Origin: a virus
Taxonomy: Duplodnaviria; Caudoviricetes
Strand: one strand, 5' to 3'
Length of the DNA stretch: 64,000 nucleotides
IMG/VR virus record: IMGVR_UViG_3300042268_000478
Span: 1-64,000 of that record
Below the pieces are notes generated by a model. It had not been told where the DNA came from and ran no database searches. It saw only the letters and a list, made by a program, of their open reading frames with translations. Shown here piece after piece: positions 1 to 63,519 of the stretch (positions are counted from its first letter, which is position 1; each line of letters begins with the position of its first letter). Made by a program: the position numbers and the translations under genes.

Positions 1-39
1 AAGTATCCTCTTTTTACAAAGCTGACAGGGGAATTTTAT

Positions 40-555
40 ATGATCTGTCTGCGCAATGGGGACGGCAGGGAAATAATTGCAAAATTAAATGAGCTTATAA
101 AATTATATAATGGAGCAGATAAAGAAAAAAAAAGAAAAGCCCAGGAAATATTAGAAAGCTGTGCAGTAAATTTTCCACACTTGGTACATATTGAACACAT
201 GAAGGATACTGCCTGTGCCGGACGCCTGATATTTACCTGTGGTGCAGTCAGATGGCACGAATGCCCGTTGAATGTCGTATGGCTAAACTATTTGTCAGGG
301 CAACAAAAAGAGTTCATCACTGCAATGAAAAATATATCGGACAAGCGTAACCAGATCTGCTTGATAAATTGGCGACAGCAAATGTATATACTCAAAACTT
401 TTTGTGAGAAAAATAATTTTGACGCCCAAACAGAGATTATGGGGTTTCTTGATTCTCCATTAATAAAATCAACTTGCAAAAACAAACCGAAAGAATTGGA
501 CGCTATAAAAAAATACATGCTTTCCATTTTTGAAAAACAAAAAGTCTGCAAATAA
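40..555 (+). CDS. hypothetical protein
   Basis: 171-aa ORF with purine-rich leader (gggg aatt); no recognisable motif. Confidence 0.5.
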   Translation: MICLRNGDGREIIAKLNELIKLYNGADKEKKRKAQEILESCAVNFPHLVHIEHMKDTACAGRLIFTCGAVRWHECPLNVVWLNYLSGQQKEFITAMKNISDKRNQICLINWRQQMYILKTFCEKNNFDAQTEIMGFLDSPLIKSTCKNKPKELDAIKKYMLSIFEKQKVCK

Positions 556-633
556 CTTTTGTATTTTTGATATTGTTGTAAAATACAAGCTGTAGCTCCT
601 TGAACAATAAAACATAAAAACATGGCATGCTGT

Positions 634-662
634 TTGAAAAGTTTATAGCTTTAATCTACATT
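634..662 (+). promoter_or_regulatory. sigma70-like promoter, copy 1 of a duplicated 32-bp element
   Basis: TTGAAA-17 nt-TACATT; 632-663 matches 1908-1939 at 29/32 positions. Confidence 0.55.
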
Positions 663-778
663 AGTTTATCCACCAGGAGAGGAAGAATATATCTAATCAA
701 TGTCATGTAGACCAACATGAGAAAGATTGTTTTGCAAAATTCTATAAAATTGAAATAATAACAACGAAGAGGTTTGAA

Positions 779-1792
779 ATGAAAAAGTTCAATAAAACAC
801 TATTTTGGGGAGTATGCGCAATCGGTATTTTAATGCTTACTGGTTGTGGGGACAAACAAAAAGACTTACAGCAAGCTGTTGACAATAAAGATGTCGCAAA
901 AATAAAAGAATTAATCAAAAACGGCGCTGATGTAAATTATAAGGGCAAAAGCGGCAACAGTAGTACACTGTTACATATTGCTCTGCAAAAAGATTTAAAA
1001 ACTTTAAAAGCATTGGTTGATGCCGGAATTAAAGTTGACCAATCTGACAAATGGCAGCGAGGTTTTATGGCTAGATGCATCTCTGGCAGTAATGAAAAAC
1101 GTAACATTGAAAAAATCAAGTTGTTGAAGTTAGCCGGAGCAGGAATCAATGACCAAGGTGGAATGGATGATAAAACTGTCTTGATGCAAGCCGCATCTGT
1201 TGGACATCTCAAGACAGTTATGTTTTTGTTAGCCAACGGCGCTGACCCTAACTTAAAAAACAACAAAGGCAAGACTGCCTATGACCTTGCTTTTAAAAAA
1301 CATTCAAAAGATAAAGTACAGAAAGTATTGGTTTACTTTGAATCCAAAGGAATCATTTCTCCTGATAAAGCCACCATGGAACTGCGCAAAAAGGATTTAG
1401 AGAAAATTGCAGCGAAAAGGCGTATTGCGGAAGCAAAACGAAAAGCGCCAAGATCAATAATCGCCTATAAATTTATCAAATATGATCCTGTAAAAAAAGC
1501 AGCTTTAATTGAAGTTGAGAATAAAACCAACAAAACAATAATGACTTATAGCGGGGTAATCTTTATTAGGCGTTCCGGAAAGATCATCTATTGCTGCGGA
1601 GCTACTGATGCCCAGCCTAATGCTATAGCATTTAAACCACATGACAAAAAACAGTGGTATCTGTCTAGTTCTGCTATGGGCTTTTCTAAAAATGCCAATG
1701 TCGATTTTAGTAAAGAAGGAAATCAGCTGGTATATGAATTTGTAATGAACAAAGTTGCCTTTAAAGACGGAACCAAAAAGGTTTTTAAATAA
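779..1792 (+). CDS. ankyrin-repeat lipoprotein
   Basis: Lipoprotein signal ending LTGC; ankyrin motifs GADVN..TLLHIA and TVLMQAA..GHLKTVMFLLANGADPN..NNKGKTAYD. Confidence 0.8.
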   Translation: MKKFNKTLFWGVCAIGILMLTGCGDKQKDLQQAVDNKDVAKIKELIKNGADVNYKGKSGNSSTLLHIALQKDLKTLKALVDAGIKVDQSDKWQRGFMARCISGSNEKRNIEKIKLLKLAGAGINDQGGMDDKTVLMQAASVGHLKTVMFLLANGADPNLKNNKGKTAYDLAFKKHSKDKVQKVLVYFESKGIISPDKATMELRKKDLEKIAAKRRIAEAKRKAPRSIIAYKFIKYDPVKKAALIEVENKTNKTIMTYSGVIFIRRSGKIIYCCGATDAQPNAIAFKPHDKKQWYLSSSAMGFSKNANVDFSKEGNQLVYEFVMNKVAFKDGTKKVFK

Positions 1793-1909
1793 TATTCATA
1801 ATACGTTGATAGTATAAGCAGAAAAAAACATACCAATGGAACCGATAAATATCCAGCTGTTTTCATCGCATACGGATTAAGGGGGGGTATAGAAAATAAA
1901 GTATCCAGT

Positions 1910-1938
1910 TTGAAAAGTTTATAACTCCAATCTACATT
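1910..1938 (+). promoter_or_regulatory. sigma70-like promoter, copy 2
   Basis: TTGAAA-17 nt-TACATT, 30 nt upstream of ATG 1969; near-identical to 632-663. Confidence 0.55.
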
Positions 1939-1968
1939 AAACTGTCCATTTGAAGGGGCAGGAATTTA

Positions 1969-2343
1969 ATGGAAACTGAAGCGTCGCAAGAACAAATTGA
2001 AGCTTGGCTGGCAACAGCTCAACTTGATTCGATAAGCAAAAAAATTGCTTGGAAGATATTTTTTAGAACTTATTTTAAGTTTCTTTTTCTTATGTTTGCC
2101 GCTTTGCTGCCAATTATAATTGTTGTTCTTACTGGTTCATTCTGGTTTTTGTTGCTGATTTTGCCTTTGCTGTTGCTTGGGAATAAGTATGGTCATTTAA
2201 AAGTTACATTTACTCCCAGCCCAAAATGTCCAATCTGTCAACACGCATTAGTGATACAGGAACGCAACGAAGATGAAACATGGAATTATTATTTGAAATG
2301 TGATGAATGTTCCAAGGAGCCCTGGCATACTCGATTCCTCTAA
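1969..2343 (+). CDS. membrane protein with C-terminal zinc ribbon
   Basis: Hydrophobic segment, then CPIC...CDEC. Confidence 0.65.
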   Translation: METEASQEQIEAWLATAQLDSISKKIAWKIFFRTYFKFLFLMFAALLPIIIVVLTGSFWFLLLILPLLLLGNKYGHLKVTFTPSPKCPICQHALVIQERNEDETWNYYLKCDECSKEPWHTRFL

Positions 2344-2387
2344 ATTACAGTATAGACTAAAAAATAATTTATCGGGAAAAAGAATTA

Positions 2388-2951
2388 ATGAAAAAGCTTC
2401 AAGTACCAATTCTTATCTTAGGAGTGTCGTGCCTCGCAGGGATGATATGGGCTGGTACTCAGGCGAATAGTTTTGATGATATCAGGCAAGAACACTATAT
2501 ACGCCTATTGGGTACTTTGGGGCTTTTCTCCCTTGCCCTGTTTTTAATTGCTTATTTATACGTAAAAATTAAAAACAAACGCCAAATGTATATAGTGATT
2601 TCAGTTATTGCATTCATGTCTTTTATATTAATATTTCCATTCGCAATAACTCCAGATAGAATCCCTTTTAGATATACATATGAAAGTTCTGACGGAGGAT
2701 TTTCCATGTATGAACATAAAGGCGGCAAAACCGCAATGGATATGCCTATAGGATTTTCAGATATTAAAAGAAAATTTGCCGAATATGTGAAGAAGACTGG
2801 GAAAAAAGATGTTGTTTTATGCCGAACATTCAAAAAAGATGACAGGATTCGCTGGCATCATTTTTATGCATGGCTGAGCTACAACACACAAGAACGTTGG
2901 CAATGTCCATATAAAGCACCAGAAGACTTAAAAGCAGAGGAATCGGAGTAA
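2388..2951 (+). CDS. hypothetical membrane protein
   Basis: Three hydrophobic segments followed by a soluble C-terminus. Confidence 0.6.
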   Translation: MKKLQVPILILGVSCLAGMIWAGTQANSFDDIRQEHYIRLLGTLGLFSLALFLIAYLYVKIKNKRQMYIVISVIAFMSFILIFPFAITPDRIPFRYTYESSDGGFSMYEHKGGKTAMDMPIGFSDIKRKFAEYVKKTGKKDVVLCRTFKKDDRIRWHHFYAWLSYNTQERWQCPYKAPEDLKAEESE

Positions 2952-3353
2952 ATGGGAAAAGATACAGTAAACAAGCTTCTCTACGCTGGATCAGCAGTAG
3001 TTGCTCTTATATCGGCAATATTTTTATCATTACTGTTTTTGGGCAAAAGTAGTTATTCACTTAGTATTCCTCCGATATGCCTAGTTCTATTGTTTAGCCC
3101 ATTAGGAAAAAAGTTACACTATATACGTGTATTTACTGTTGCAACTCTTTCGATTATAGCGTCAATGTTAGTCGGGCTTGCAATTCCATTGAATATAGGA
3201 AGATATTTCGATAACCGAGGAGCTCTCGACCCCGACTGGCTTCACCCATTTTACATATTTTGTTTAGTTGCAAGTATAATTTTGGGGCTAGTTCTAGCAT
3301 ATATAATTTTCAAAAAGTATTACAAGAAACAGCAAAATGAAGAAAAAATTTGA
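2952..3353 (+). CDS. hypothetical membrane protein (about 4 TM)
   Basis: Abuts the previous stop (TAA ATG); hydrophobic throughout. Confidence 0.6.
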   Translation: MGKDTVNKLLYAGSAVVALISAIFLSLLFLGKSSYSLSIPPICLVLLFSPLGKKLHYIRVFTVATLSIIASMLVGLAIPLNIGRYFDNRGALDPDWLHPFYIFCLVASIILGLVLAYIIFKKYYKKQQNEEKI

Positions 3354-3371
3354 TGAAAAGGAAATATCCTA

Positions 3372-3671
3372 ATGGAACCCAAAATAATTTTAATATCGGC
3401 GATTGCGGCAAGCACAAATATCATACCAGGTATTCTTCTGGTTATTTATCATGGAGCCATTGAAAGGTTCTTCGGAAGACTTGACGAAATCCCCGTTATT
3501 TCCAGCTTTGGCTATAAAGGTAAATTTTTCGGAATGACCCGCCAAACATTTATAAAATACCTTGGAATCTGGTTTATTGCCTGGGGTGTGATATTCGGCT
3601 TTATTTTCGGGGGAATCCTCAGCAGTTCAAGAGGTAATACAGAAATACAAACATCACAGCAAAATCAGTAA
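3372..3671 (+). CDS. small membrane protein
   Basis: Two hydrophobic segments; AAGGA SD-like sequence upstream. Confidence 0.55.
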   Translation: MEPKIILISAIAASTNIIPGILLVIYHGAIERFFGRLDEIPVISSFGYKGKFFGMTRQTFIKYLGIWFIAWGVIFGFIFGGILSSSRGNTEIQTSQQNQ

Positions 3672-3715
3672 AGATTTTTTAGAATCGTATAAAATAAAAA
3701 AGAGAATGCGTCTCA

Positions 3716-4168
3716 ATGAAAAGGCAAGACAAAATAAAGAACATTATTGGCATAGCAATTCTTTTGGCTTTGATATTACCCGATGTGTTTGTCAGAATAA
3801 TGCCTTCTAAAGCAAGGCGTAGCCTGCCGGATACAGCTACAGAAATCCGAGAAGAATTTGAAGGTCTTATCTGCTGCGACCATCTACGTCTGCTGAAAGC
3901 CAGGATGCCACAAGAAGGCTTTCGTGAGTTTATTAAGAACTATGGCTTAAAAGTAAAATATGATCCCACAACGCATGATAATAAAATTACAACAATTCTG
4001 AATGTCAAATATAGCGGCTCGCCAGATTGGTGGAATGGAGCAAATGAAAAACTTGATGATTGTTATTTTGTCTATGAGCCATACAGAGGCTATTGCTTAC
4101 GGCAAAATATCAAAACGGCTGTCTATATTTTTCTGAAGCCAAATGGTAAATGCTTTTATGAAAGTTAG
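3716..4168 (+). CDS. hypothetical protein with N-terminal anchor, possibly frameshifted near 4101
   Basis: N-terminal hydrophobic stretch; the -1 frame from 4102 gives AKYQNGCLYFSEAKW-stop(4149), which removes the overlap with the next gene. Confidence 0.55.
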   Translation: MKRQDKIKNIIGIAILLALILPDVFVRIMPSKARRSLPDTATEIREEFEGLICCDHLRLLKARMPQEGFREFIKNYGLKVKYDPTTHDNKITTILNVKYSGSPDWWNGANEKLDDCYFVYEPYRGYCLRQNIKTAVYIFLKPNGKCFYES

Positions 4169-4493
4169 AAAATATCATAAATTTGGAAATCGTTATATGT
4201 TCCAGAATTTAATTTTATTTATTCCTGGAGTATATATTTTCTGGCAGTTATGGAAACTTGCAGAAGCTAGATATCCCGCAGTTATTTTTTATGGAGCTCT
4301 TTTCTTGTTTCTGGTTGTTGGATGGATAATTTGGGACAAAATAAGATTTAAAAGTTTTCATTGTCCTCAATGTGGCACAAAGATAGCCGAACCAACCATA
4401 AAGCACAGAAAAGAAGATGACCCAATAAATTACTATTGTCCGACTTGTGATATTGAATGGGAAACTGGATTACATGAATCTCCTGGGGATTGA
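4158..4493 (+). CDS. membrane protein with C-terminal zinc ribbon
   Basis: Two TM segments, then CPQC...CPTC; same architecture as 1969..2343. Confidence 0.65.
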   Translation: MKVRKYHKFGNRYMFQNLILFIPGVYIFWQLWKLAEARYPAVIFYGALFLFLVVGWIIWDKIRFKSFHCPQCGTKIAEPTIKHRKEDDPINYYCPTCDIEWETGLHESPGD

Positions 4494-4501
4494 GGGAAAA
4501 T

Positions 4502-5062
4502 ATGAATTACATGATTTTAAAGAAATTTGGTCCACACAATAAGACTTGTGATGAAGCGTCCAAAGGAGAAATATGTAAAAACTGGGAGGACTTTGCCAAG
4601 TGGTCAGGGATTGAACACTGCAAAGAATATTATTCTCTTGACGGGCTTACAAGGACAAGAATGTTTAATCCTGAAACCGAGGAAGATTGGCAAAATTGCA
4701 TTAATGATGACTTCAAAATAGACATAATAACAAACCTTGAATACGCCCTGAAAGTTATTCACAAATATCCTGCTTCTGAGATTGTCGGAGTTATTGAAGA
4801 ACCCGTCTCAAAGTTTTTTGATGCGCCTGCCGGTCATATTCTTGTTGGATATGATATTCTTGACGGCTATAATGATGTGTCGCTGTTGACTAACTGGAGA
4901 AGCAACGATTGCATGGCGAAAATCAAATTAAATGACTTGGCTTTACTTGATAGTCTGGAAGAGGCATATACGTTGGCAGAAAGATTACGTAAAGATTTTG
5001 CAACAGACCCTCATGCTTGTAACTGTCAAGTGTGGGCTGTATATAAAGTACTCCAAATGTAA
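4502..5062 (+). CDS. hypothetical protein
   Basis: ~186-aa ORF, first ATG at 4502; no recognised family. Confidence 0.6.
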   Translation: MNYMILKKFGPHNKTCDEASKGEICKNWEDFAKWSGIEHCKEYYSLDGLTRTRMFNPETEEDWQNCINDDFKIDIITNLEYALKVIHKYPASEIVGVIEEPVSKFFDAPAGHILVGYDILDGYNDVSLLTNWRSNDCMAKIKLNDLALLDSLEEAYTLAERLRKDFATDPHACNCQVWAVYKVLQM

Positions 5063-5079
5063 GGAATCAAGGCAAAAAG

Positions 5080-5092
5080 AATGGTCGACCAT
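5080..5092. other. putative left attachment site
   Basis: AATGGTCG core shared with the tRNA end at 63339; continues as the palindrome ATGGTCGACCAT (5081-5092); CATTCTCTG at 5111 is the reverse complement of CAGAGAATG at 63325. Confidence 0.65.
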
Positions 5093-5226
5093 GTTTTAGC
5101 TTATCGAACTCATTCTCTGGTTTGATATGCATTTTTTCGATACTCAAACCAACTCCTCGAACTTTTCTCTGTTTTTTCGTTGCGAATCAATAAGTTTGCA
5201 AACCGATAATTTTTGATTCTCGCAGC

Positions 5227-8200
5227 CTACTGCAATTGCTTTCTCTTCAGTGAATAGAAGGTATTCGAAAAGAAATCATTGTTGTTGTCTATGATTTTTT
5301 GAGGACATAAATCAACGAATTGCTGATAATCTTTTCTCTCTCCTATTTGATCAATAATAGCAAGCATCATTTTCGCGACATCAAAATCTATCTCAGGCAA
5401 TGTCCAGAGCCATTCAAAAAGGCTTTCAAGAATATTTCTGTCAGAAACACCCAACCGCACAAGAACTTCTATATAACCATAGTAAATCGATATAGGGTGC
5501 TTTTCCTTTGCTTTTATATTTTGGAGGCAATTATTATAATGTTGGAATCGGCGAGACTTACAAATAGCAATGCCATATAATAGTTTTCCCTTGTCTAACA
5601 ATAATCGATCAATATGGTCTTCCCTGTATTTGAACCAACCATACTTATTGCATACTTCATAAATATTGCCTAAATCGTGCTCAGATAAATATTTAATATA
5701 AGGTGACAAAGCCATCAATTGGTGAAATCTTGTTATTCCTGGATGATTTACTGTTTTCAATCCCCAGGCGCTTCCAAAAGATTCAAAAACCTCTGTTGGG
5801 GTTGCATGCTGCGAAACCACATTCTCAACTAAGCTACATAATTTGTCCGTTGCAACATACAAGGCTCCGAGAATATAATCTCCGTTACACTTAAGATGTT
5901 CCCAATGCTTTACGAAAAGAGCTTCAGCCTCATAATGAGGAAGTTTAATAATAATTTGTGGCATACAAAAATCAACCTCAAGAAATGATTTCCCCCAGAC
6001 TTTGGAAACTTTATTTTTGCGAATTTCCAAATATGCATCTATTAAATCAATAAAAATCTTTGGATTGATATCCCTTGCAAATTGCCAATAGTAACTACTT
6101 TCTAAATTGTTATTAATGATTTCATGGTACAGCCCCAGTGCAGTAGTGTCACCTTTTTTTATTCTCTGCACAATCAATTGATTGTATAATTTATCTTCAC
6201 CATTGCTATGCCTTGTCATCATTTCAATATTGTCGTCATTTCCCGTCGTAGCCCAAAGTTGCAATGCTTTGCCTCTAGCCCAAATTTCTGTTTGAGGGTT
6301 AGCCCAAACTCTATAAAGCCAATTTTGCGAATTAAGCGATAAAACTATTCCGTTATTTGTTTTATTTTGTTCCCAGTGTTGAGTAAAACGTAGTGCGAAA
6401 ATCATGTCATGTTTACTACAGAAGTCCAATACGTATTCAAAAGCAATCCAGCAATCTACTCCATGTAGCAAATATGCAGTTGTATTCTCAAAAAACTTAT
6501 TCCCACTATTTATTGCTAAGCTAATTAAAAATTTGACAATTTTTGCTGTGGGGGGCACTTTAGTTAGGATATTCTTCAAAATTTGAATGTCACAATAATT
6601 TCGTGTATTATCTTCATTCTCCTTGTTCCACACCTTAGAAATCAACTCCGAGGTTAATATGTACCCAAGCAATTTTTCGGGGTTATCTCCAGAGCAATAT
6701 AAACCAGCAAAAAAATAATCATTCAGCAAGGCTGTTTTAGTCTCATCAGTTTCTTGTGCCCAAGCACATCTGACACTTTCTTGCAGGATTGGATTTTGCA
6801 GATACCCAGCAAGCCTGAGCATGCCTGAGCGTTGTTCAGATGTAGCGTTTTTAAGTTGTATTTGTAATTCAGAAGCAAATTGACCGTTATATTTTTCAAT
6901 TGCCTTATTAAAATCTGAATTAAAATTAGCATAACAACGGCCTATATCCATGTGGGCGCAAACATCTATGCCGCCAGTAATATCTCCATTCCTAAAAGAC
7001 GCAAAAGAAAGAAACCAATCGTTTCCGGGGAAGATACTCAAAATATCTCTAACATGGGAAGAATCTGTTTGCGCCAAGCAAAACGAACATTCGTATATCA
7101 AGTTTTTATTTGATGGAGATAAAGCGCTAACGCTAGTAAGCCACTCTTTTATACAATCTACGATGAATATTTGCTCTTTTGTTTTGGCTTCTCCAAATTC
7201 TTTTAATGCAAAGAAAAGCGCAAGAGGGTTAAGCAACTTTATTTTCCCTATTACACTTTCAGTAATGCTAGAGTCGCATATTGCATGTCCCATTGCTTCT
7301 GCAAAAAAAGGTTCTGCCAAGCAATCATCCGATATATCGCCCGTTTGCATACTTTGGGATATCGCATTAGCCGCAAGCCAATCTCGGACTCGATCATGCC
7401 GGAAAACTATTGAAGTATTTCCTGCGCAGTCTTCCATATTGAAGATTTCTCTTTGGTTTCCGATTACCCGCAAAGCATCTATAGTCTCCGGCCTATCAAA
7501 ATTATGATTTCCAACATCCCTCCAGGATATTGCCAGCTGCCTGTTCTCATACATCATTATCATCATTGCGCTTAGGGCATCCATATAATCAGCAGAAACA
7601 AAGCGTGAAGAATTATTTGACAGCAACTCTAGTTTTTGTGTTATCAATTGCCCTATCGCTTGATTGGCGTCAATATCTTTATTGTCGTTAATGTCATGCA
7701 GCGCAATGAGCAAAGGGTCATAGCCCAATTTCTTTGCAATTTCATCGGCAGTATAGTCGGTGACGGGGGAGACTGCTTGGCGATATTTGGCTTTTACTGC
7801 TTCTCGCCCTTCAAGCCTAGAGAAAACATCAAAGCTATGTGTTAATCTATCTGCAAGTTCCCTTAGTTGCGAGTCCAACCCCAAGATATTCCTTGGTTGA
7901 ATGGGGCATATTATTAAAATGGGTTGGCTAAATTCGCCATCATTACATGATGCTTGATGCCAGCTTAATAATTTTTCTAGAAGTCGCTGTGGATTTGTTG
8001 ATTTGTTGACATCTTCAACGATAATCACAAATGGATTCCGTGGTTTTGCAAGACTCAAAGCATCTGATACTGAGCTCTCGTGCAAATGAGGATGAAGATT
8101 TTTTAAGGTAAGAGCAATAGCCGCAAATAGAGAATCGCTTTGAGATAATATACTATCCGTTAAAACTATACCATATCCCCCTTTATTTATATGCTCGTTG

Positions 8201-8907
8201 AGGAATTTATGGCAAACGACGCTTTTTCCATATCCTGACTTTGCTGATAATATCAAAAGCCCTATATGGTTAGAATCTCTGAGGCGCACATCAATTGAAC
8301 GCGTAATCCAGAATGCAGGAGAGCTGGGAATATGCAATTCTCTCAAGCTCGCTGAGGATAGTTCATTCAATAATTCAGGCGATAATAATTCTTGTGGAAT
8401 ACCCAGGAATTTATAGCGTATGTACTGCCCTGTTGTATCATAATCAAGAAAGTGAGCAATGCTACTAAGTCCCCAAGCGTCAATCTGGATATTGTAATTT
8501 TGTGCAAATTCACATATTTTGCTGGCGGTGTCATTTGAAGGCTCTGTGTTGAAAGCGAGTATGAGCCTACATTGTAATTTTGGGTTCTTTTTCTTTTCTT
8601 GATTGTATATTTCCGATGTTTTTATAATATCGCCGGGGGCTTTTTTTGATTTGCTAAATAATTTATTATCAAGAGACTTGGAGGCTGTGATCGTACACTG
8701 CACTGCAATCATTGTGTTGTTACTGAAGTAAATCCCATCTAATGGAGCTTTTTGGGTTTTGCCTTTTGGCGTTATGCCTGTATGGAACAATGCTCCATAT
8801 TCCTCGGGATTTTCTTCCCGCAAAACAGCAATAAACAAACGTTCAAACACCCCAGGGTCTGTTATCGCAGCTAAACTTTCGGTTGTTTGTGTATTGCCCC
8901 CAACCAT
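5227..8907 (-). CDS. STAND/NACHT-like NTPase with N-terminal Mrr-like nuclease domain (Avs-like defence protein)
   Basis: N-terminal FERLF...LDGI...AVQC (Mrr-like pattern); Walker A SGYGKS; Walker B IIVEDVN; long helical C-terminus. Confidence 0.65.
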   Translation of the reverse strand: MVGGNTQTTESLAAITDPGVFERLFIAVLREENPEEYGALFHTGITPKGKTQKAPLDGIYFSNNTMIAVQCTITASKSLDNKLFSKSKKAPGDIIKTSEIYNQEKKKNPKLQCRLILAFNTEPSNDTASKICEFAQNYNIQIDAWGLSSIAHFLDYDTTGQYIRYKFLGIPQELLSPELLNELSSASLRELHIPSSPAFWITRSIDVRLRDSNHIGLLILSAKSGYGKSVVCHKFLNEHINKGGYGIVLTDSILSQSDSLFAAIALTLKNLHPHLHESSVSDALSLAKPRNPFVIIVEDVNKSTNPQRLLEKLLSWHQASCNDGEFSQPILIICPIQPRNILGLDSQLRELADRLTHSFDVFSRLEGREAVKAKYRQAVSPVTDYTADEIAKKLGYDPLLIALHDINDNKDIDANQAIGQLITQKLELLSNNSSRFVSADYMDALSAMMIMMYENRQLAISWRDVGNHNFDRPETIDALRVIGNQREIFNMEDCAGNTSIVFRHDRVRDWLAANAISQSMQTGDISDDCLAEPFFAEAMGHAICDSSITESVIGKIKLLNPLALFFALKEFGEAKTKEQIFIVDCIKEWLTSVSALSPSNKNLIYECSFCLAQTDSSHVRDILSIFPGNDWFLSFASFRNGDITGGIDVCAHMDIGRCYANFNSDFNKAIEKYNGQFASELQIQLKNATSEQRSGMLRLAGYLQNPILQESVRCAWAQETDETKTALLNDYFFAGLYCSGDNPEKLLGYILTSELISKVWNKENEDNTRNYCDIQILKNILTKVPPTAKIVKFLISLAINSGNKFFENTTAYLLHGVDCWIAFEYVLDFCSKHDMIFALRFTQHWEQNKTNNGIVLSLNSQNWLYRVWANPQTEIWARGKALQLWATTGNDDNIEMMTRHSNGEDKLYNQLIVQRIKKGDTTALGLYHEIINNNLESSYYWQFARDINPKIFIDLIDAYLEIRKNKVSKVWGKSFLEVDFCMPQIIIKLPHYEAEALFVKHWEHLKCNGDYILGALYVATDKLCSLVENVVSQHATPTEVFESFGSAWGLKTVNHPGITRFHQLMALSPYIKYLSEHDLGNIYEVCNKYGWFKYREDHIDRLLLDKGKLLYGIAICKSRRFQHYNNCLQNIKAKEKHPISIYYGYIEVLVRLGVSDRNILESLFEWLWTLPEIDFDVAKMMLAIIDQIGERKDYQQFVDLCPQKIIDNNNDFFSNTFYSLKRKQLQ

Positions 8908-9449
8908 TATTGACTCCTTTGGTTTACCGCTCTGCCAACCTGAACATCTTGGAAGTAATGATTGCTGTCAATATAGGAAACAATTTTCCCATTATCATAA
9001 ATAGCGTGCGCGCAATAGAGGTTGCGGTTGCTGTGATTCATTACATTTGGCAGGATATAACGCTGGTGCAGTGGCATCGTTCCATAGTCAATGGATTCTT
9101 CGTTAATCCATACTGGGGCTCCTTCAGGGGTATCGCTTAAAATCTCGCCAGAGTAGCCAAATGCTTTTGCAATGTACATTATGCCGCTTTTGTCTTCATT
9201 GTCAACCCAACTAAATGTCCCCCATAAGAACGGCTCTAACAGCATTGCGCCTGTTTCCTCGTGGAACTCCCTTGTTGCCGATTCAAGCACCGATTCGCCG
9301 GGTTCAATTTTCCCTCCCGGAGGGATAAGTTTGCCTGCATTCATCCTAGAGCCGGGCGGCTTTTGCAAAACCAATAATTTGCCATCGCAAAAGAGGTATG
9401 TCAGCGTGAAAGGCAAAAACCTTGTATTTTCATGATATTTTGATTCCAT
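8907..9449 (-). CDS. NUDIX hydrolase (MutT/MTH1-like)
   Basis: Nudix box GGKIEPGESVLESATREFHEETG; ATG at 9449 overlaps the upstream TAA (TAATG). Confidence 0.9.
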   Translation of the reverse strand: MESKYHENTRFLPFTLTYLFCDGKLLVLQKPPGSRMNAGKLIPPGGKIEPGESVLESATREFHEETGAMLLEPFLWGTFSWVDNEDKSGIMYIAKAFGYSGEILSDTPEGAPVWINEESIDYGTMPLHQRYILPNVMNHSNRNLYCAHAIYDNGKIVSYIDSNHYFQDVQVGRAVNQRSQ

Positions 9450-10309
9450 TACGACTGCACTCCTGGAGCTTGCCTGCCGTAGTATGCCTTCACGGCAACC
9501 CCATTTAACCAAGGATGTTCAGTCACGGTTATTGGGTTAGCAGGGCTTTCTATTTGAGCTCGGCTATTCCATAAATTAAATGAAGAAGGAGTAGCGAGCG
9601 CGACAACCTCTATAACATTTCTTTGCCCTGACACTAATCCCATTGCAGGAGAAAAAGGATTCGTGATAGTCCACATTGGGCGGACACGGAGGGTTGTCTT
9701 GAATACGCCTTGGGCAGATTGGATTCTAGCAATCTCCTTGGAGTTTAAGTAATCATAATCCGTATCGGCAAATGCTTGCTGCACGCCGGCGCTTGCCGTG
9801 CCAAACATGTTTTGCGAGTCTGCTGCATCAAGCAATGCCCCTTCGATAAACGCCACTTTGCAGATAAACGAGCCGTCCATTAACGCAAAACAATAAAACA
9901 GGGGGGCAGACTCCCTTGCTTCTTGCTGTAAAACGTCTGCTACCGCACGTGTTGCCGTTTCGATATTGATTTCCCTTTTTACAGGGGAACTGTTCAGTTG
10001 TATTTCTCCAGATATAGAGCTAGTTTTTTTTACCTCGACGGCACAACCATTGGCGAGGATAAAGTCAGGAGGGTTATTTGCCGACCCTAAATGGCTCATG
10101 AAAGCCCCTGGATGAGTATATTGTTGGCTTGCCAGGCAATTGCAATAACCCATTTGGATTGCGTTTTCAACGTCAGCCCCTGATTGGCTAACGCGGTTCC
10201 CATAAGCATTAGGCTGTGCAAATAAAGAACTATCGAGTGCTCCGTATTGTGAAAAATAAGAAGCAAAATCGAAGAATGCAACTCCTGTATCAGTAAGCGG
10301 GTTATTCAT
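9449..10309 (-). CDS. NgoPII-family type II restriction endonuclease (GGCC family)
   Basis: NR..QSG, HLGSANNPPDFIL..AVEVKK..LNSS and LRVRPMWTITNPF match the NgoPII pattern; PD...EVK intact. Confidence 0.8.
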   Translation of the reverse strand: MNNPLTDTGVAFFDFASYFSQYGALDSSLFAQPNAYGNRVSQSGADVENAIQMGYCNCLASQQYTHPGAFMSHLGSANNPPDFILANGCAVEVKKTSSISGEIQLNSSPVKREINIETATRAVADVLQQEARESAPLFYCFALMDGSFICKVAFIEGALLDAADSQNMFGTASAGVQQAFADTDYDYLNSKEIARIQSAQGVFKTTLRVRPMWTITNPFSPAMGLVSGQRNVIEVVALATPSSFNLWNSRAQIESPANPITVTEHPWLNGVAVKAYYGRQAPGVQS

Positions 10310-10721
10310 GGCATGCCTCCTCTATCTCATCGCAGATGCTGGCGAGCTTTTTCTTAATGTCTGGTTCCCAATAGTGGAATACTCGCCATCCTAGTCCAAC
10401 CAAAGCTTCGTTTGCTTGCTGGTCGCGTTCTATATTACGCTCAATTTTGGGAATCCAATATTCACGGTTTGATTTAATTTTTGTCCTTTTTACTTCCCAA
10501 TTCCTGCCATGCCAAAATTCTGAATCGCAAAAAATTGCGATTTTCCGGGACGTGATGGCGATATCTGGCCGCCCCGGCAAATTACCATAGTCTACGCGGT
10601 AACGTATGCCACGGCGGTAAAGTTCTTTGCGCAAAAGCAACTCAACCTTGGTGTCTTTCCGCTTGATCGCCTTCATGATCTTTGAGCGCTCTGGCGAAGT
10701 ATTAGAAAAATCGTAACTCAT
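10302..10721 (-). CDS. vsr: very short patch repair endonuclease
   Basis: ERSKIMKAIKRKDTKVELLLRK, GRPDI, FCDSEFWHG, YWIPKIERNIERD, GWRV..WE. Confidence 0.95.
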   Translation of the reverse strand: MSYDFSNTSPERSKIMKAIKRKDTKVELLLRKELYRRGIRYRVDYGNLPGRPDIAITSRKIAIFCDSEFWHGRNWEVKRTKIKSNREYWIPKIERNIERDQQANEALVGLGWRVFHYWEPDIKKKLASICDEIEEACHE

Positions 10722-10933
10722 ATAACTCCAATCTACTCGATTATTTATGCATAAATAATGTACTGCATTTTTATGTTTTTTCTATGTCGAAAGTAATAAG
10801 AGAGCTATTATTTTTGGCAAACTGTTATATATTACCACAAGGTGATGTTTTGTTTTAGGAAAACTTATGAGATTGAACATTTTAGCTATAATTATATTTT
10901 GCCTGGCTTTAGGCAACTAAAGGGGATAAAAAG

Positions 10934-11833
10934 ATGCCACGCGCGAATATTTCTGACCAACACGGACGGGCTTTTGAGTATGCAATTGCTGCAACTTTAG
11001 GAGAATGCCCGAACTCATCCCTCTCTTCACGGGCAACACGAGACCAAGAACGAGATAAAGTCAAATACGGCAATTTGCCAGACCGCATGAAGCAACGTTT
11101 TGCCCGTGCGGCAAAAGCCTTGGTGTTGTCTCTGTCGCAAACAGGGCACAGAATGTCTGGCTTTTCCATTGACCGGCTACCTGATGACGCCGCAAAAAAG
11201 GGGGACGTTACCGACATCCGGCTTGAGTGGAGTGACGGCAAAACGTTAAACTTGTCTATAAAAAACAACCATCACGCATTGAAACACCAGCGCCCGCCAT
11301 CGTTGATGCAGCAGCTTGGCTATCCCAAAAAACATCCCATGGATATTAAATACCGATCCGATTTGAGTGAAGTTTTTGCAGCGTTTTACCGCTCGGCAAA
11401 TGAGGTTGCGCCAAGCGCCGTAAACTTCCGCGATGTAAATGCAATCCAGCTGGGATTTGTTGACAACTACCTTTATAGCCCTGTTTGCGGTTTAGCCGCG
11501 CGGTATTTGGCTGCCGAGTTAAAGAAACCGCAGCAATGTAAAACTTTTTTTGCCTTTTTGGTGGGTAGGATTGACTATGTTAAAGTTATACTCAAGGGCG
11601 ACGCTTTGGAAATAACAGACTTTTCCGCTATTGAGCTACCTACGGAATGCAAAGTAAGCCAAGAGGATGGCAGGGCAAGCTATATCTACCTGAATTTCAA
11701 TAACGGCTGGGCATTGTCCTTAAGGCTTCACACCGCATCGTCAAAAATGGGCAAACTGGGCGGCACTCCGAGCACAAAATTTGACACGCAACCAGTAAAA
11801 ATGCCGTTAAAAATGTATCGAGTAGGGATATGA
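10934..11833 (+). CDS. HaeIII-family type II restriction endonuclease
   Basis: SDQHGRAFEY and GDVTDI...LSIKNNHHALKHQR motifs of the HaeIII REase family; next to HaeIII-like MTases. Confidence 0.8.
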   Translation: MPRANISDQHGRAFEYAIAATLGECPNSSLSSRATRDQERDKVKYGNLPDRMKQRFARAAKALVLSLSQTGHRMSGFSIDRLPDDAAKKGDVTDIRLEWSDGKTLNLSIKNNHHALKHQRPPSLMQQLGYPKKHPMDIKYRSDLSEVFAAFYRSANEVAPSAVNFRDVNAIQLGFVDNYLYSPVCGLAARYLAAELKKPQQCKTFFAFLVGRIDYVKVILKGDALEITDFSAIELPTECKVSQEDGRASYIYLNFNNGWALSLRLHTASSKMGKLGGTPSTKFDTQPVKMPLKMYRVGI

Positions 11834-12720
11834 GTGGTTTTTCAGCAACAGAACAACAACTTCTGGCATTATTTGCCCAAGGAGCGCAATTTGAGTGCGG
11901 CAACAATAGTTTTACTGTCCGTTTTGCAGGAAAGCCAACATGTTCATTTGGAGAACCTAAAACAGATGTTTACGCAGTAGTTTTCAACCATGCTACTGAA
12001 CAAGATGAAGAAATAAAAATTTCGTACAAACAAAGCAATGCTGATTTTTTGGAAAACAAAATTAGCGCAGAACGCGCGGATGGCATATTTGGGTCTAATT
12101 GGAGCGCTGTTATACAACAAGCAACCTATTCAATACAGAACGATTTTTTATCCAGGCAACTGATTTTCCCAGAGCAATACCGAAGAACACAGGCGGGGTC
12201 AATTACGCTTGGATGGAAGTTTGAATTGGTAAACAAGCCCGGTGGAGAATTATCAGGAGTTATACCGCTAACTTTTGAACAAAAAATAGATATATATTCG
12301 GGGATTAACCTTTCACCTGAAAAACGCGATGCTTGGGTTTGCGGGAAGCAAATAATAGGCTCTGGCATTGCCAATTGTATTTTGGCAACAGACAATTTAT
12401 CGACTCTGCAATGCGCCATAAACAATCTTATGCCTATATACAAATTTGTCCAACAGCGACCTGAGATATATTTTGCCTGCAAAGCATTGAATTGCCGGAC
12501 GTTCCACCCACAACGCAAATGGGATGGGAATCGCCCACTTGCCGTACAAGTTTTATGGTCTGCAGAAAATGGCATACTGACGCCATATATTAAATTTGAC
12601 TCGCCTTTAATGCTTAACGGTAATGATGCAGGCTACACGTTGCTAAATGCCTTAAGGCAAATTGGCGTACATGACGTGAATGGCTTAAATGCATCCAATT
12701 GTAGTTGTTTCGCTAGGTAA
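11830..12720 (+). CDS. putative PD-(D/E)XK-type endonuclease, uncharacterised
   Basis: EPKTDVY...EIKISYK resembles a nuclease active site; coupled (ATGA overlap) to the HaeIII-like REase. Confidence 0.55.
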   Translation: MSGFSATEQQLLALFAQGAQFECGNNSFTVRFAGKPTCSFGEPKTDVYAVVFNHATEQDEEIKISYKQSNADFLENKISAERADGIFGSNWSAVIQQATYSIQNDFLSRQLIFPEQYRRTQAGSITLGWKFELVNKPGGELSGVIPLTFEQKIDIYSGINLSPEKRDAWVCGKQIIGSGIANCILATDNLSTLQCAINNLMPIYKFVQQRPEIYFACKALNCRTFHPQRKWDGNRPLAVQVLWSAENGILTPYIKFDSPLMLNGNDAGYTLLNALRQIGVHDVNGLNASNCSCFAR

Positions 12721-12722
12721 AC

Positions 12723-13763
12723 CTACCTGCTAAAATACTTCTCTACCGCCTTGCCTAGATGATAAGCGAACCTGACCGGAACAGCGTTTCCAATCATTTT
12801 GTAACCGTAGTTAACGCTTTTGTAGACAAACTCAAAGTCATCAGGGAAAGTCTGCACCCGTGCGCATTCCCTAACCGATAAACGGCGGTATACTTCGAAA
12901 GGCGCAGTGAATTTCCAACTGTCCTCGCTAACTTTTTCCATTGGCGGGCAATCTGGATGTAATGGGGCCTGCCTGCTGCTGGCTTGGATAGTGAATGAAG
13001 GTTCATCCCAACTGCGGCGCCGGTTCCGAGACATGTATATTGGGGAAAAATCGCCAATTGCATATTCGTGGTTAAGTATTTCAAGGCTTTCATTGCAATG
13101 GTTTTTTTCAAGTGCGGGAGTTGATTTCGGCAAATCGCCAATTGCTTCGCGCAAGGTTACAATAGGCTTGGACTCCATCTGGAACAAGCACGGCTCATCG
13201 TCTTCGTAGTCTGTGACAATATCTGGGAAAGCAAAAGTTTTCGTGGCGCAGTCTTTATTTATCCCGACGATGATAACTCGTTTGCGGTCTTGAGGCACTT
13301 CATAATTGACTGCGTTGAATAACTGGGCATATATTTCATAGCCAATTTCAGAAAATTTAGCCTTTATGCCTTCAAAAGCTTCTATATGCTTTTGCGATAT
13401 TATCCCGGCAACGTTTTCCGCTAAGAAAAATTTGGGCTTTATGGCTGCTACCAGCCTGATGTAGTCATAGAACAATTGCCCGCGCGGATCGTCAATCCCG
13501 CGCATGGAACCGCCCAAGCTCCAACTTTGGCAAGGCGGTCCGCCAATCATCCCATCGATTCCAGAGCCTATGTCCTCTGGTTTTATTTCTGTGATGGAAC
13601 GTTGCTCAAGGTGGGTATTCGGGTGATTGCGCTTATAGGTCGCCCATATCCCTTTGTCGTATTCGTTTGCCCAAGCAACATCAAAGCCTGCTTGCTCGAA
13701 ACCTAAGTCTAAGCCACCCGCTCCTGAAAAGAATGCCGCTATGCGTAACTTTTTATTTCCCAT
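12723..13763 (-). CDS. DNA (cytosine-5) methyltransferase, M.HaeIII-like
   Basis: [64 protein letters not shown]. Confidence 0.95.
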
Positions 13764-14763
13764 TAATCAATTGCTCTTTTAATGCGATGGCAAGCGCTTC
13801 TGCAAAGTTAACAGCAACGGCATTGCCTATCATTTTATATCCACCCAAGAGTGAATCGTATTTAAACACGAAATCATCAGGGAATGTTTGGATTCTCGCG
13901 CACTCCCTAACACTTAACCTCCGGTAAAGGTGTTCTTGCCCTTTTTCAAAAATACGTTTGTCTTTGCCCACTTTAGGCATGACTGGCGCTTGCGGGTGTA
14001 TTGGGGCATGCCTACCCCCTGCTTGGATAGTGAATGACTGTTGATCCCATTCCCTCACGCGGTTCCTCGACATATAAATAGTGGAGAACCCGCCAGTTAA
14101 ATATTCATGGTTTGCAATTTTGCATTTATCTCCATTCGTCTTGTTTTTTTCTGCGGCAGGGATTGCAGAATCCGCCAAATCGCCGATTGCATCACGCAGT
14201 GGCACTTTGCTTTTCAATGGGGCAGGAAAATTGAACGAGAAACCTAAATCTGAACGGATTCCAACGAATATAACCCTCTTTCTATCTTGTGGGACGCCAA
14301 AGTTAGAGGCGTTCAATAATTCAACAGATAAAGTATACCCAGCATCTTTAAACATAGCTTTTATGTTTTTCACTGCTCCTTCATGCCTCTTGGATAACAT
14401 GCCTGACACGTTTTCAGCTAGGAAGAATAATGGTTTTTTATCTTTGAGCAAGCGGATAAATTCGAAGAACAACTGCCCACGCGGGTCATCAATGCCGCGC
14501 AGAGCCCCTGCTTCACTCCAGCTTTGGCAAGGCGGGCCGCCAATAATACCATCGCAATCAGGGATATCATCCGAAGGGATATCCCTGATGTCTCGCCTGT
14601 CGAGTCGGGTATGCTTGTGGTTTAACTCAAAAGTTTCCCATATATCGCTGTCGTATTCATTTGCCCACGGGATTGAAAACCCCGCTTTTTGAAAACCTAA
14701 ATCAAGTCCTCCGCAACCTGAAAACAGCGAGATGACTGTTGGGCTGTTATTTTTGCTCGTCAT
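13753..14763 (-). CDS. DNA (cytosine-5) methyltransferase, M.HaeIII-like
   Basis: All C5-MTase motifs; [32 protein letters not shown] closely resembles M.HaeIII/M.NgoPII. Confidence 0.95.
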
Positions 14764-14923
14764 TTACTATTCCTTTTCTATTTTGTAAATATTTATCAAT
14801 CGCATCGCGGACAACCCATGCCACAGAAACTTTATTTTCTTGAGCTATATTCTCAAGTTGTTCATAATGCTCTTGAGGAATAGAAGTCGATGTTCTAATG
14901 CTTTTTCTCTTGCTTGTTCGCAT
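14747..14923 (-). CDS. ribbon-helix-helix (CopG/Arc-like) regulator of the MTase operon
   Basis: [37 protein letters not shown]; GGAGA SD before ATG 14923. Confidence 0.8.
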
Positions 14924-14951
14924 AATAGTCTCCGTTACCTGCATCAATGTA

Positions 14952-14964
14952 CACCACAGTGGTG
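14952..14964. promoter_or_regulatory. candidate RHH operator
   Basis: Perfect palindrome CACCAC-A-GTGGTG about 30 nt upstream of the RHH start. Confidence 0.45.
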
Positions 14965-15003
14965 CAAAATCAAGTTAATTGCGGAAACTATAATGCTTAT
15001 TTT

Positions 15004-15390
15004 TCACTTTGAAGCCAACCATTGCTTTTCTTGTTCGCTCCATAGCTCAGGCATTTTTTTGCGGAGCTTTTCAACTCCCAACCCATTCAGGTTCTCCCCG
15101 GTAATAATTGCATGGATAATTTTCGGGGAAAGATACCTCAAGCGAATTGTCCTAGTTAAAAACGAAACATCCATGCCAAGAGCTTGCGCGAGTTCTTTGG
15201 TATTTTTTAATACTCCATCATCAATGAGTTTTTGCCAATAAAAAGCGCGAGCGATATTTAACGCCAGTGGCGTTTCGTTTTGGTTTTCTCCACTCGTTGC
15301 CACCAGTTCTTGGTGGTAGCGGTTCCGCCTCACTTTTATCGGGATAGTTATATGGATATTGCCGTTATCCAGTCTCGTTATTTTTTGCAT
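15004..15390 (-). CDS. HTH-containing protein typically encoded after DUF2924/serine recombinase pairs
   Basis: IARAFYWQKLIDDG..TKELAQALGMDVSFLTRTIRLRYLSPKII; overlaps the recombinase 3' end. Confidence 0.7.
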   Translation of the reverse strand: MQKITRLDNGNIHITIPIKVRRNRYHQELVATSGENQNETPLALNIARAFYWQKLIDDGVLKNTKELAQALGMDVSFLTRTIRLRYLSPKIIHAIITGENLNGLGVEKLRKKMPELWSEQEKQWLASK

Positions 15391-63338: not shown

Positions 63339-63346
63339 AATGGTCG
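63339..63346. other. putative right attachment core of the prophage
   Basis: AATGGTCG, identical to 5080-5087; overlaps the tRNA 3' end. Confidence 0.65.
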
Positions 63347-63387: not shown

Positions 63388-63408
63388 TATAGCATCAAGC
63401 AAAGAATA

Positions 63409-63434: not shown

Positions 63435-63519
63435 TTATACCCTAATGAAGCGCTTGTAATGGCGAGACTGAGCGTATATATTCCAGACAGTATAGCAAAC
63501 AAAAATAACCAGTAAATCT

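Follow-up and report, generated by a model that had tools for sequence, protein, structure and literature searches.

An Avs4-like STAND gene joined to a 5-methylcytosine restriction cassette with Vsr and NUDIX genes: a probable mosaic operon

Avs4 (AVAST type 4) of E. coli (PDB 8dgf) carries a restriction-fold (Mrr-like) nuclease, a STAND NTPase and a long C-terminus, in this order, in one gene. In Dcm-Vsr and in the vsr-linked type II 5-methylcytosine (5mC) restriction-modification (RM) systems of the HaeIII/NgoPII type, C5 methylases and HaeIII- and NgoPII-family restriction endonucleases (REases) are found with the Vsr nickase. The dNTP sanitisers NudG (Orf135) and human MTH1/DCTPP1 provide a third comparison, the predicted likeness being that of a Nudix-box dNTP pyrophosphohydrolase of the MutT/MTH1 branch. 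E. coli NudG prefers 5-methyl-dCTP, CTP and dCTP as substrates. For genes lodged within Hma loci, a role in defence has been demonstrated (Payne et al., bioRxiv 10.1101/2024.01.29.577857).

The window analysed here (64,000 nucleotides) holds a STAND NTPase gene with the domain order of Avs4. Avs4 is also its best structural match, and members of its family likewise lie in defence islands. The window protein differs from Avs4 in length (1226 aa against ~1540 aa), in its predicted nuclease motif, which is non-canonical, and in having no match to it at the sequence level. The cassette next to it shares its classes of enzyme with the Dcm-Vsr and type II 5mC systems, but cassettes of this type carry a pair of methylases and as many as three REases, with a MutT-like NUDIX in 3/3 lineages. 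The NUDIX of the window falls below the NudG equivalog cutoff (PRK10546, 19.8 bits against 156), although such an activity is still compatible with it. The Hma-embedded candidates (bioRxiv 10.1101/2024.01.29.577857) share their embedding site with some STAND homologues, whereas the window copy lies outside any Hma locus; none of HEC-01 to HEC-09 of the same study, compared by description, is a STAND nuclease.

Layout of the operon and its surroundings

The genes of the locus are as follows.

5227-8907, minus strand: STAND NTPase gene, whole, 1226 aa (ORF list)
8907-9449, minus strand: MutT/MTH1-like NUDIX hydrolase (PF00293); 180 aa when read from its ATG (9449), the ORF list also giving a TTG start (8907-9512)
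9449-10309, minus strand: NgoPII-family type II REase, 286 aa (PF09521 4.5e-23; PADLOC REase_II 1.6e-22)
10302-10721, minus strand: vsr, very-short-patch T:G mismatch endonuclease, 139 aa, first gene of the operon (TIGR00632, PF03852)
10722-10933, no strand: AT-rich control region lying between the divergent vsr and HaeIII-like/RE2 operons (read from the sequence)
10934-11833, plus strand: HaeIII-like type II REase (evidence joint with RE2: PF09556 2.8e-15; PADLOC REase_II PDLC03438 4.4e-46)
11830-12720, plus strand: RE2, second type II REase (joint evidence as above)
12723-13763, minus strand: MT1, C5 cytosine methyltransferase in tandem with MT2 (PF00145 5e-87)
13753-14763, minus strand: MT2, C5 cytosine methyltransferase in tandem with MT1 (PF00145 9e-98)

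Four minus-strand genes overlap in the order vsr, NgoPII-like REase, NUDIX and the 1226-aa NTPase (ORF list), and each start has a Shine-Dalgarno site. The junctions were read directly from the sequence. At the vsr/REase junction, the REase ATG at 10309 and the vsr TAA at 10304-10302 give an 8-bp overlap, with GGAGG upstream. The REase/NUDIX and NUDIX/STAND junctions are TAATG at 9451-9447 and 8909-8905, preceded by AGGAG and AAGGAG respectively. The junctions match exactly those of the original prediction (8-bp overlap at 10302-10309, TAATG at 9449 and at 8907). A 5-residue C-terminal extension of NUDIX is encoded by the ribosome-binding site of STAND, which speaks for separable modules. Three overlapping junctions with one ribosome-binding site apiece are ordinary operon architecture, and a test against chance was therefore unnecessary. 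The four genes probably form a single transcription unit.

Promoter-like sites (24 against 24.4 expected from shuffles) and terminator-like sites (11 against 11.8) were not in excess, and none of the latter was detected between NUDIX and STAND. Since the TAATG coupling leaves no space for a terminator, co-expression of NUDIX and STAND is probable, and it may have been selected for. A strong-looking -35/-10 pair is seen within NUDIX on the minus strand (9205-9178), as a lead only. The divergent control region contains an 18-bp palindrome at 10741-10758.

The restriction-modification cassette and its NUDIX

The cassette is made up of two C5 methylases, the HaeIII-like REase with a second REase, Vsr and NUDIX, and occurs in three diverged lineages, a small sample. 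Identity to the counterparts in the related cassette L085 is 75% for MT1, 80% for MT2, 58% for the HaeIII-like REase, 55% for RE2 and 64% for Vsr. The Vsr protein is identified by TIGR00632 (6e-42; 142.7 bits against a cutoff of 97.85) and PF03852 (3e-24), and would repair T:G mismatches arising by deamination of 5-methylcytosine. The NgoPII-family REase gene is optional: it is absent from L085-L087, and in L088 it is frameshifted and sits at another position. In the window it has probably been inserted between vsr and NUDIX.

The NUDIX was recognised by PF00293 (5e-11; 43.1 bits against a cutoff of 21.1) and has a complete Nudix box, GX5EX7REUXEEXGU (G46-x5-E52-x7-R60-E61-F-H-E64-E65-T-G67-A). 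The solved structures nearest to it over the full length are 3fk9 MutT (1e-21) and then MTH1/NUDT1, and in the search of models with curated cutoffs it was not an equivalog of MutT either. Judged by sequence, it is of the MutT/MTH1 nucleotide-pool type, so that the removal of modified dNTPs originally proposed for it is a reasonable guess; the layered role with STAND that went with this proposal is not supported. Such an enzyme would most likely hydrolyse a modified pyrimidine dNTP. The obvious candidate substrate would be 5-methyl-dCTP from the turnover of methylated DNA, and its hydrolysis would block its random re-incorporation.

Among 5.8 billion proteins, the NUDIX had no more than two close relatives (57% and 43% identity). 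Both sit in MTase-MTase/REase-REase/Vsr/NUDIX cassettes that lack STAND, with differing gene order and a local GC of 0.49 and 0.36. Beside distant NUDIX genes (<=35% identity), in 80 metagenome loci, no relative of Vsr, MTase, REase or STAND was found, which limits the linkage of NUDIX and cassette to the close subfamily. Within that subfamily, a MutT-like NUDIX kept with Vsr in three diverged lineages suggests that 5-methylcytosine restriction cassettes carry a nucleotide-pool cleaner in addition to a mismatch-repair nickase. The idea is easy to test, and in the literature searched there was no description of a NUDIX as an RM accessory. The conservation of Vsr and NUDIX together as accessories to 5mC restriction is one of the new points of the locus.

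It is unlikely that the NUDIX serves in defence, or in phage counter-defence, with RNA caps or nucleotides used in signalling or as cofactors (ADP-ribose, NAD, cyclic oligonucleotides) for substrates in place of the dNTP pool. PADLOC PDC-S07, a candidate single-gene system, matches it weakly (6.4e-6) in the Nudix-box region only, and the locus adjoins a prophage. Against this, the closest solved full-length relatives are dNTP hydrolases of the MutT/MTH1 type and not ADP-ribose or decapping enzymes, and the gene has been kept beside Vsr in the three cassettes.

The STAND protein and its family

The 1226-aa protein is divided as follows.

8323-8907, minus strand: residues 1-195, predicted PD-(D/E)xK nuclease-fold effector domain (FokI/Mrr/Avs4-like; AF2 pLDDT 91.8)
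7378-8322, minus strand: residues 196-510, NOD module with P-loop NTPase, helical GxP domain and winged helix (AF2)
5227-7377, minus strand: residues 511-1226, presumed sensor region (conservation in homologues)

The Mrr-like nuclease N-terminus originally proposed was borne out in the AF2 model, where residues 1-195 adopt a restriction-endonuclease fold. In the VIA-wide comparison, the domain matched N.BspD6I (Z 11.3), the R.BspD6I small subunit (11.0), Avs4 residues 1-177 (9.9), FokI (9.7), MspJI (9.7) and LlaBIII (9.0), and with Foldseek the best match of the domain alone was Avs4; the N-domain profile found no match among PDB sequences at E<=10. The putative nuclease active site is non-canonical. 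E22 and D57 are at canonical places and are invariant in the family along with K82 and D93, but the third strand lacks ExK (HHT in the family, QCT in the window copy) and K82 and D93 are placed on helices after it.

The Walker motifs expected in this gene are present as SGYGKS (Walker A, 223-228) and IIVED (Walker B, 295-299), with G225, G227, K228, E298 and D299 invariant in 35 sequences. They are followed by the GxP region LGYDPLLIAL (394-403; G395, D397 and P398 invariant) and by an invariant MHD-like motif, R503-H504-D505-R506, in the winged helix. The protein thus has the P-loop, the GxP helical domain and the subsequent winged helix with a conserved His that define the STAND superfamily. 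The NOD module matched NRC3 (Z 12.6), NLRC4 (12.4), Avs4 (12.3), ZAR1 (11.7) and Apaf-1 (10.8). Cdc6/ORC and AAA+ chains scored almost as high as these NB-ARC/NACHT modules, and the assignment to STAND is therefore carried by the motifs. With Foldseek on residues 1-500 (model pLDDT 90.4), Avs4 was the best match (E 1.3e-9 over ~500 columns) and the only listed chain covering both domains (model 7..500 against chain 2..465). With an effector domain fused to a STAND core, the modelled protein is Avs-like in architecture, as had been predicted.

The region C-terminal to the NOD module (~715-720 aa) is conserved over its whole length in ~40 homologues (26-33% identity). The original prediction put ~800 helical residues here. 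For a helical nature, an Atlas search gave only weak leads, HEAT and NACHT-C-terminal-helical, with scores <=0.85. By analogy with Avs3 and Avs4, this region would bind a phage protein as the trigger. NTP-dependent oligomerisation of the NOD module would then bring the N-terminal PD-(D/E)xK domains together, and the clustered domains would cut DNA and abort the infection.

The full-length family profile gave only chance-level matches to PDB sequences (E>=0.025), none of them to Avs4. No family of PADLOC-DB v2, the AVAST models (Avs1-5) included, matched at E<=0.01, and there was no match in NCBIfam and only a sub-threshold AAA_22 match in Pfam. The family is an unnamed one, without a model in Pfam, PADLOC or NCBIfam, and is spread over many phyla. 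Clustered at 50% identity, it comprises 675 clusters with E<=1e-3, of which 381 also pass <=1e-30, and the best 150 listed are nearly all ~1200-1250 aa long or shorter fragments. An uncharacterised Avs-like family is thus added, one of NLR-like sensors with a predicted nuclease and ~400-700 clusters at 50% identity, and its phage trigger is open to screening as for Avs3/4 and Avs7-21. In the supplements searched from a 2026 STAND survey, none of WP_334389779, WP_108066659 and PTL83742 was listed. A scan of IMG/VR viral contigs found no STAND relative, which is weak evidence as the scan was limited by its pattern.

The window copy is quite unlikely to be a decaying or repurposed member of the family, that is, one with an inactive nuclease, an incipient pseudogene or a sensor lacking an effector of its own. 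Signs of decay are the changes of the near-invariant H70-H71 to Q-C and of W83 to L, two loop deletions in the N-domain, the retention of only 131 of the 170 columns conserved at >=90% (77%; second lowest among 41 sequences) and a branch of 2.35, longer than any other in the tree, where the median is 0.37. However, the reading frame is uninterrupted over its 1226 codons, every NTPase motif and the family-invariant E22, D57, K82 and D93 are kept, and rapid evolution with skewed composition is usual in defence genes of a low-GC genome.

Probably separable modules at one locus

In ~46 other genomes (50 loci fetched, ~46 distinct), STAND homologues stand alone within defence islands. Their neighbours include CBASS III, a DISARM-like pair, Hma, HEC-01 and ABC-ATPase, OLD, UvrD, PIN and HigB genes. 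tblastn of the window NUDIX, Vsr, REases and methylases against these loci gave no relative, and at most 1 of 148 nearest neighbours was a NUDIX. The original prediction had named a lack of STAND homologues beside NUDIX or RM genes among the findings that would speak against a composite system, and this is largely the outcome; across these loci and the other two NUDIX cassettes, vsr, REase, NUDIX and STAND were not found together. There is also a break in base composition where NUDIX meets STAND, the GC3 being 0.486 for Vsr, 0.475 for NUDIX and 0.339 for STAND, with 0.32-0.36 for the left-flank genes. STAND without cassette genes elsewhere, the cassette without STAND in both other lineages and this break together indicate that the operon is a mosaic. 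We favour, with a probability of about 0.7, three separable modules lying end to end: a 5mC RM cassette with Vsr and NUDIX, an inserted NgoPII REase and an autonomous Avs4-like STAND. In this arrangement vsr and NUDIX would serve as accessories to a mobile RM cassette of double type II make-up, the 1226-aa gene would be an autonomous antiviral STAND, and the NUDIX-STAND join would be a recombination junction and no evidence of a common function. The coupled NUDIX-STAND junction, the small number of cassette lineages, the Hma clade described below and the non-canonical, divergent nuclease site of the window copy count against this reading.

The layered system first proposed, in which STAND guards or backs up restriction (for example by sensing anti-restriction proteins) while NUDIX removes modified dNTPs that enable escape, is very unlikely. 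Translational coupling at 3/3 junctions and the uninterrupted passage from NUDIX to STAND speak for it, but a recombination junction can yield tight coupling without a functional system. The modules separate in other genomes and differ in composition at the point where they are joined. Seven STAND homologues do lie between HmaA and HmaB/HmaC (helicase-methylase-ATPase); this is the only link of the family to modification-based systems, and in the tree these copies form one clade of single origin. Given this clade, the STAND family may have a functional tie to modification systems. It is highly improbable that STAND is wired to modification-based immunity as a guard layer that senses phage anti-restriction factors or failure of the methylation system, and for this reason is co-translated with the cassette here and lies in Hma loci elsewhere, with Vsr and NUDIX limiting what 5mC costs in mutational and epigenetic terms.

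The locus adjoins a prophage, and STAND may lie inside or outside it. No GenBank phage matched 5000-15000 in a megablast search. Direct or inverted att-like repeats between the candidate left ends (5040-5240, 8800-9000, 10700-10950 and 14700-15050) and the right end (62200-63600) were limited to 9-10-bp matches, a search that is not expected to reveal the sites of serine recombinases. An empty site was sought by exact look-up of the left-flank proteins, which returned nothing or short contigs only. The low GC3 of STAND was considered as proof of a location outside the prophage and was dropped, since the Logan contig data do not bear out so firm a conclusion. A Logan contig of run X4 diverges from the window at 10768.

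Gene content and borders of the locus

Four overlapping minus-strand ORFs had been proposed, and all four were seen as described, junctions included. The vsr and NgoPII-family REase genes overlap by 8 bp, the vsr stop (10304-10302) lying within the REase start region (ATG 10309). TAATG at 9451-9447 combines the REase stop with the NUDIX start, and TAATG at 8909-8905 combines the NUDIX stop with the start of the STAND gene. A purine-rich ribosome-binding site lies 6-10 nt 5′ of every start. The NUDIX start is best read as ATG 9449 (180 aa), in preference to an upstream TTG. The block at 5227-10721 is part of a larger unit, whose features are as follows.

Features of the locus
5227-8907, minus strand: STAND gene (1226 aa)
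8907-9449, minus strand: NUDIX enzyme (PF00293, 5e-11; firm)
9449-10309, minus strand: NgoPII-family REase (PF09521, 4.5e-23; firm)
10302-10721, minus strand: Vsr (TIGR00632, 142.7 bits against a cutoff of 97.85; firm)
10722-10933: AT-rich control region of 212 bp, between the vsr operon and the divergent REase operon
10934-11833, divergent from the vsr operon: HaeIII-family REase
11830-12720, divergent from the vsr operon: RE2, a second type II REase
12723-13763 and 13753-14763, convergent to the REase pair: tandem C5 methylases
15004-16663, minus strand: large serine recombinase, adjoining the methylases and followed by prophage up to about 63 kb

The divergent control region contains a perfect 18-bp palindrome, TTATTTATGCATAAATAA, at 10741-10758, which could be an operator, although the locus lacks a gene for a controller (C) protein. 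The recombinase consists of two ORFs of 432 and 128 aa in different frames, which overlap at the A-runs of 15376-15398. Its counterpart in L054, a locus from a close relative of the phage, is a single ORF of 549 aa, and the 128-aa piece aligns to residues 432-546. Either a slippery site or a frameshift, the latter grounding the prophage, accounts for the split.

The Avs4-like STAND protein

No Pfam, NCBIfam or PADLOC family matched the 1226-aa STAND protein, except for a sub-threshold AAA_22 match at residues 216-323. Residues 1-500 were considered as an alignment-based AlphaFold model (pLDDT 90.4). Foldseek ranked Avs4 bound to phage portal first among PDB entries (8dgf, E 1.3e-9, ~500 columns) and Avs3 next. 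VIA-align matched the NTPase part to NRC3 (Z 12.6, rmsd 4.1, 208 aligned), NLRC4 (12.4), ZAR1 (11.7) and Apaf-1 (10.8). Avs4 (Z 12.3, 402 aligned) was the sole chain among those listed to cover both domains, model residues 7-500 corresponding to chain residues 2-465. Cdc6/ORC and AAA+ chains scored nearly the same as the NLR chains, so the fold by itself cannot tell STAND from other AAA+-like NTPases; the motifs do tell them apart. Walker A G225, G227 and K228 and Walker B E298 and D299 are invariant in the family, a GxP-type motif (LGYDPLLIAL) lies at 394-403, and the invariant R-H-D-R at 503-506 occupies the position equivalent to the MHD of plant NLRs.

The N-domain (residues 1-195) modelled alone gave a pLDDT of 91.8. 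In a Foldseek-independent search of 48,161 chains, its top matches were all restriction-fold nucleases: the N.BspD6I cleavage domain (Z 11.3, 151 aligned), the BspD6I small subunit (11.0), Avs4 residues 1-177 (9.9), the FokI cleavage domain (9.7), MspJI (9.7), AspBHI (9.4) and the Mrr-like domain of LlaBIII (9.0). Cdn1, Card1 and Can2 came after these. With these nucleases at the top of the search, the Mrr-like nuclease assigned to the N-terminus in the original prediction is right at the level of fold. Together with the Avs4 match and the STAND motifs, this bears out the Avs-like architecture with a nuclease effector. The active site is non-canonical. E22 on the first long helix and D57 at the start of a core strand are invariant. 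On the strand where (D/E)xK is usually found, the family instead has H-H-T, and the window copy Q-C-T. The helices after that strand carry K82 and D93, again invariant. Because of this active site, the domain is best termed a predicted nuclease, whose activity we infer from the modelled fold.

Of 41 sequences, the window copy stands on the longest branch (2.35; median 0.37) and is in that sense the most divergent; its nuclease domain carries two loop deletions. Of 170 columns with conservation of 90% or more in the other sequences, it retains 131; its frame is intact and its NTPase motifs are all retained. That this copy is decayed or devoid of nuclease activity is considered unlikely.

About 40 full-length relatives, none of them named, came up in a word-indexed search, with identities of 26-33%. 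The N-domain profile, run against 1.84 billion representatives, gave 675 proteins at E<=1e-3 and 381 at E<=1e-30. Nearly all of the best 150 matches listed are 1200-1250 aa long or fragments on short contigs; this near-uniform length indicates that the three-part architecture is fixed. The 48 genome loci come from Pseudomonadota, Acidobacteriota, Myxococcota, Bacteroidota, Cyanobacteriota, Verrucomicrobiota, Planctomycetota, Latescibacterota and others. The family tree is not congruent with taxonomy, in line with expectation for a defence gene that moves horizontally. A 2026 survey distinguished 589 STAND clades and at least 90 Avs-type families (bioRxiv 10.64898/2026.01.04.697583).

Neighbours of the STAND gene and of the NUDIX gene

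The neighbours of the STAND homologues are defence genes: a type III CBASS, a DISARM-like pair, and ABC-ATPase, OLD, UvrD, PIN and HigB genes, along with transposases. At seven distinct loci the STAND gene lies between HmaA and HmaB/HmaC, at times with HEC-01. These seven genes form a single clade with full support, so the Hma link is one association that spread rather than a recurrent one. Genes embedded in Hma have been shown by experiment to be defence genes, and none of the nine described is a STAND nuclease (bioRxiv 10.1101/2024.01.29.577857). By the published 'embedded gene' logic, the STAND gene would be an unlisted Hma-embedded candidate. The seven loci (L024, L033, L028, L038, L008, L017, L025) belong to Latescibacterota, Acidobacteriota and Rhodothermota, and a HEC-01-like ABC-ATPase pair stands alongside the STAND gene in three of them.

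The four genes had been proposed as a possible composite, layered defence system. When the window NUDIX, Vsr, three REases and two methylases were compared by tblastn with 50 STAND loci (~46 distinct), no match was obtained at E<=1e-3. A Pfam scan of the 148 nearest STAND neighbours placed NUDIX in at most one, and it was absent among the families with two or more members. Thus, the STAND gene is not partnered with NUDIX or restriction genes, and the composite proposal is not supported, sound as the observation of the block is.

The company of the NUDIX gene is a different one. Only two close relatives exist among 5.8 billion proteins (57% and 43% identity), and both sit in the same cassette as the window NUDIX.

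Gene order at the loci with the NUDIX cassette (identity in brackets)
L085-L087: MT2 (80%), MT1 (75%), RE2 (55%), HaeIII-like REase (58%), Vsr (64%), NUDIX (57%)
L088: frameshifted NgoPII gene, MT, MT, RE2, HaeIII-like REase, NUDIX; Vsr on the opposite strand

In L085-L087, Vsr and NUDIX overlap, the NgoPII gene is absent and a convergent PLD-family gene holds the position of STAND in the window. L085 has a local GC of 0.49 and L088 one of 0.36. That NUDIX has been kept despite so much divergence and rearrangement speaks for a role together with the cassette; none of 80 more distant NUDIX loci has cassette-type neighbours. The Nudix box is complete, and, compared over its full length, the enzyme is nearest among solved proteins to Bacillus MutT (3fk9, 1e-21) and the MTH1/NUDT1 group, which are nucleotide-pool sanitisers. 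The enzyme is not an equivalog of NudG or MutT. E. coli NudG prefers 5-methyl-dCTP, and this preference, with the gene company, suggests the same compound as a possible substrate. A literature search found no description of a Nudix gene as a restriction-modification accessory. What is of interest here is the uncharacterised Avs4-like family, which lacks a Pfam, NCBIfam or PADLOC model, and the Vsr and NUDIX accessory pair in a 5mC restriction cassette; each is a new member or a minor variant of a kind already known.

The NUDIX/STAND junction and the phage

GC3 is 0.486 in vsr, 0.415 in NgoPII, 0.475 in NUDIX, 0.49 in the HaeIII-like REase and MT1, and 0.515 in the recombinase. It is 0.339 in the STAND gene and 0.32-0.36 in the genes at 1-5062, the break falling at the NUDIX/STAND boundary. 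Compared with both relatives, the window NUDIX has five additional C-terminal residues, whose codons (AAC CAA AGG AGU CAA) are the Shine-Dalgarno region of the STAND gene. On the simplest reading of these sequences, the cassette would have been joined onto the 5′ leader of a STAND gene already in place, the NUDIX frame then extending to the first stop. NUDIX and STAND are likely co-transcribed. A near-consensus -35/-10 pair (TTGACA, 16 nt, CATAAT) at 9178-9205 on the minus strand, inside NUDIX and ~270 bp before the STAND start, could be a STAND promoter, in a scan that overall did no better than shuffles.

The locus may be phage cargo. In the closest phage relatives (terminase ~87% identical) the slot directly after the recombinase holds other defence cargo, and in L085 the cassette adjoins a tape-measure gene that is truncated and stems from a related phage. 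One Logan contig of sequencing run X1, which may be the sample behind the assembly of the record, spans 5058-16779 without differences at a depth of 27.6; 1-5058 is deeper (34-82) and polymorphic. The STAND gene itself may not be phage cargo: its base composition is like that of the left flank and unlike that of the phage, and a pattern-limited scan of other IMG/VR viral contigs found no STAND relative. Contigs depart from the window at 14753 (runs X1 and X2) and 10768 (X4), one contig each, and these points fit the module borders at the MT2 start and the divergent control region.

The slot after the recombinase looks like a defence-cargo hotspot of the phage group. In L054 (12001-20732) it holds a DrmD-like SNF2 helicase, a 443-aa protein without assignment and a type III Mod/Res pair, and in L076 (12344-14931), from another relative, two methyltransferases. 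In L085 (1-3440; GCA_036677805.1) the MTase/REase/Vsr/NUDIX cassette starts ~200 bp after the tape-measure gene, which is cut at 276 of 1081 residues and comes from a phage related to that of the window (tail genes 57-83% identical). The cassette has thus either inserted into a related prophage or taken the place of part of it.

The left flank (1-5062) holds the gene of an ankyrin-repeat protein (779-1792) and, in series, genes for small membrane and zinc-ribbon proteins without family. In wastewater runs the flank is polymorphic and read depth over it exceeds that over the rest, some contigs skipping 1940-3300 and 3602-4498. The full IMG/VR record is 106.9 kb, of which the window is the first 64 kb, and a second prophage begins at 63.5 kb (tyrosine integrase, terminase, portal). 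A 47-nt tRNA 3′ fragment (T-arm and acceptor end with CCA) lies at 63341-63387 on the minus strand, and the tyrosine integrase follows 130 bp further on, at 63520; ARAGORN reported no tRNA there because the fragment is partial. It is probably an attachment-site copy of the second prophage, which fills 63.5-107 kb.
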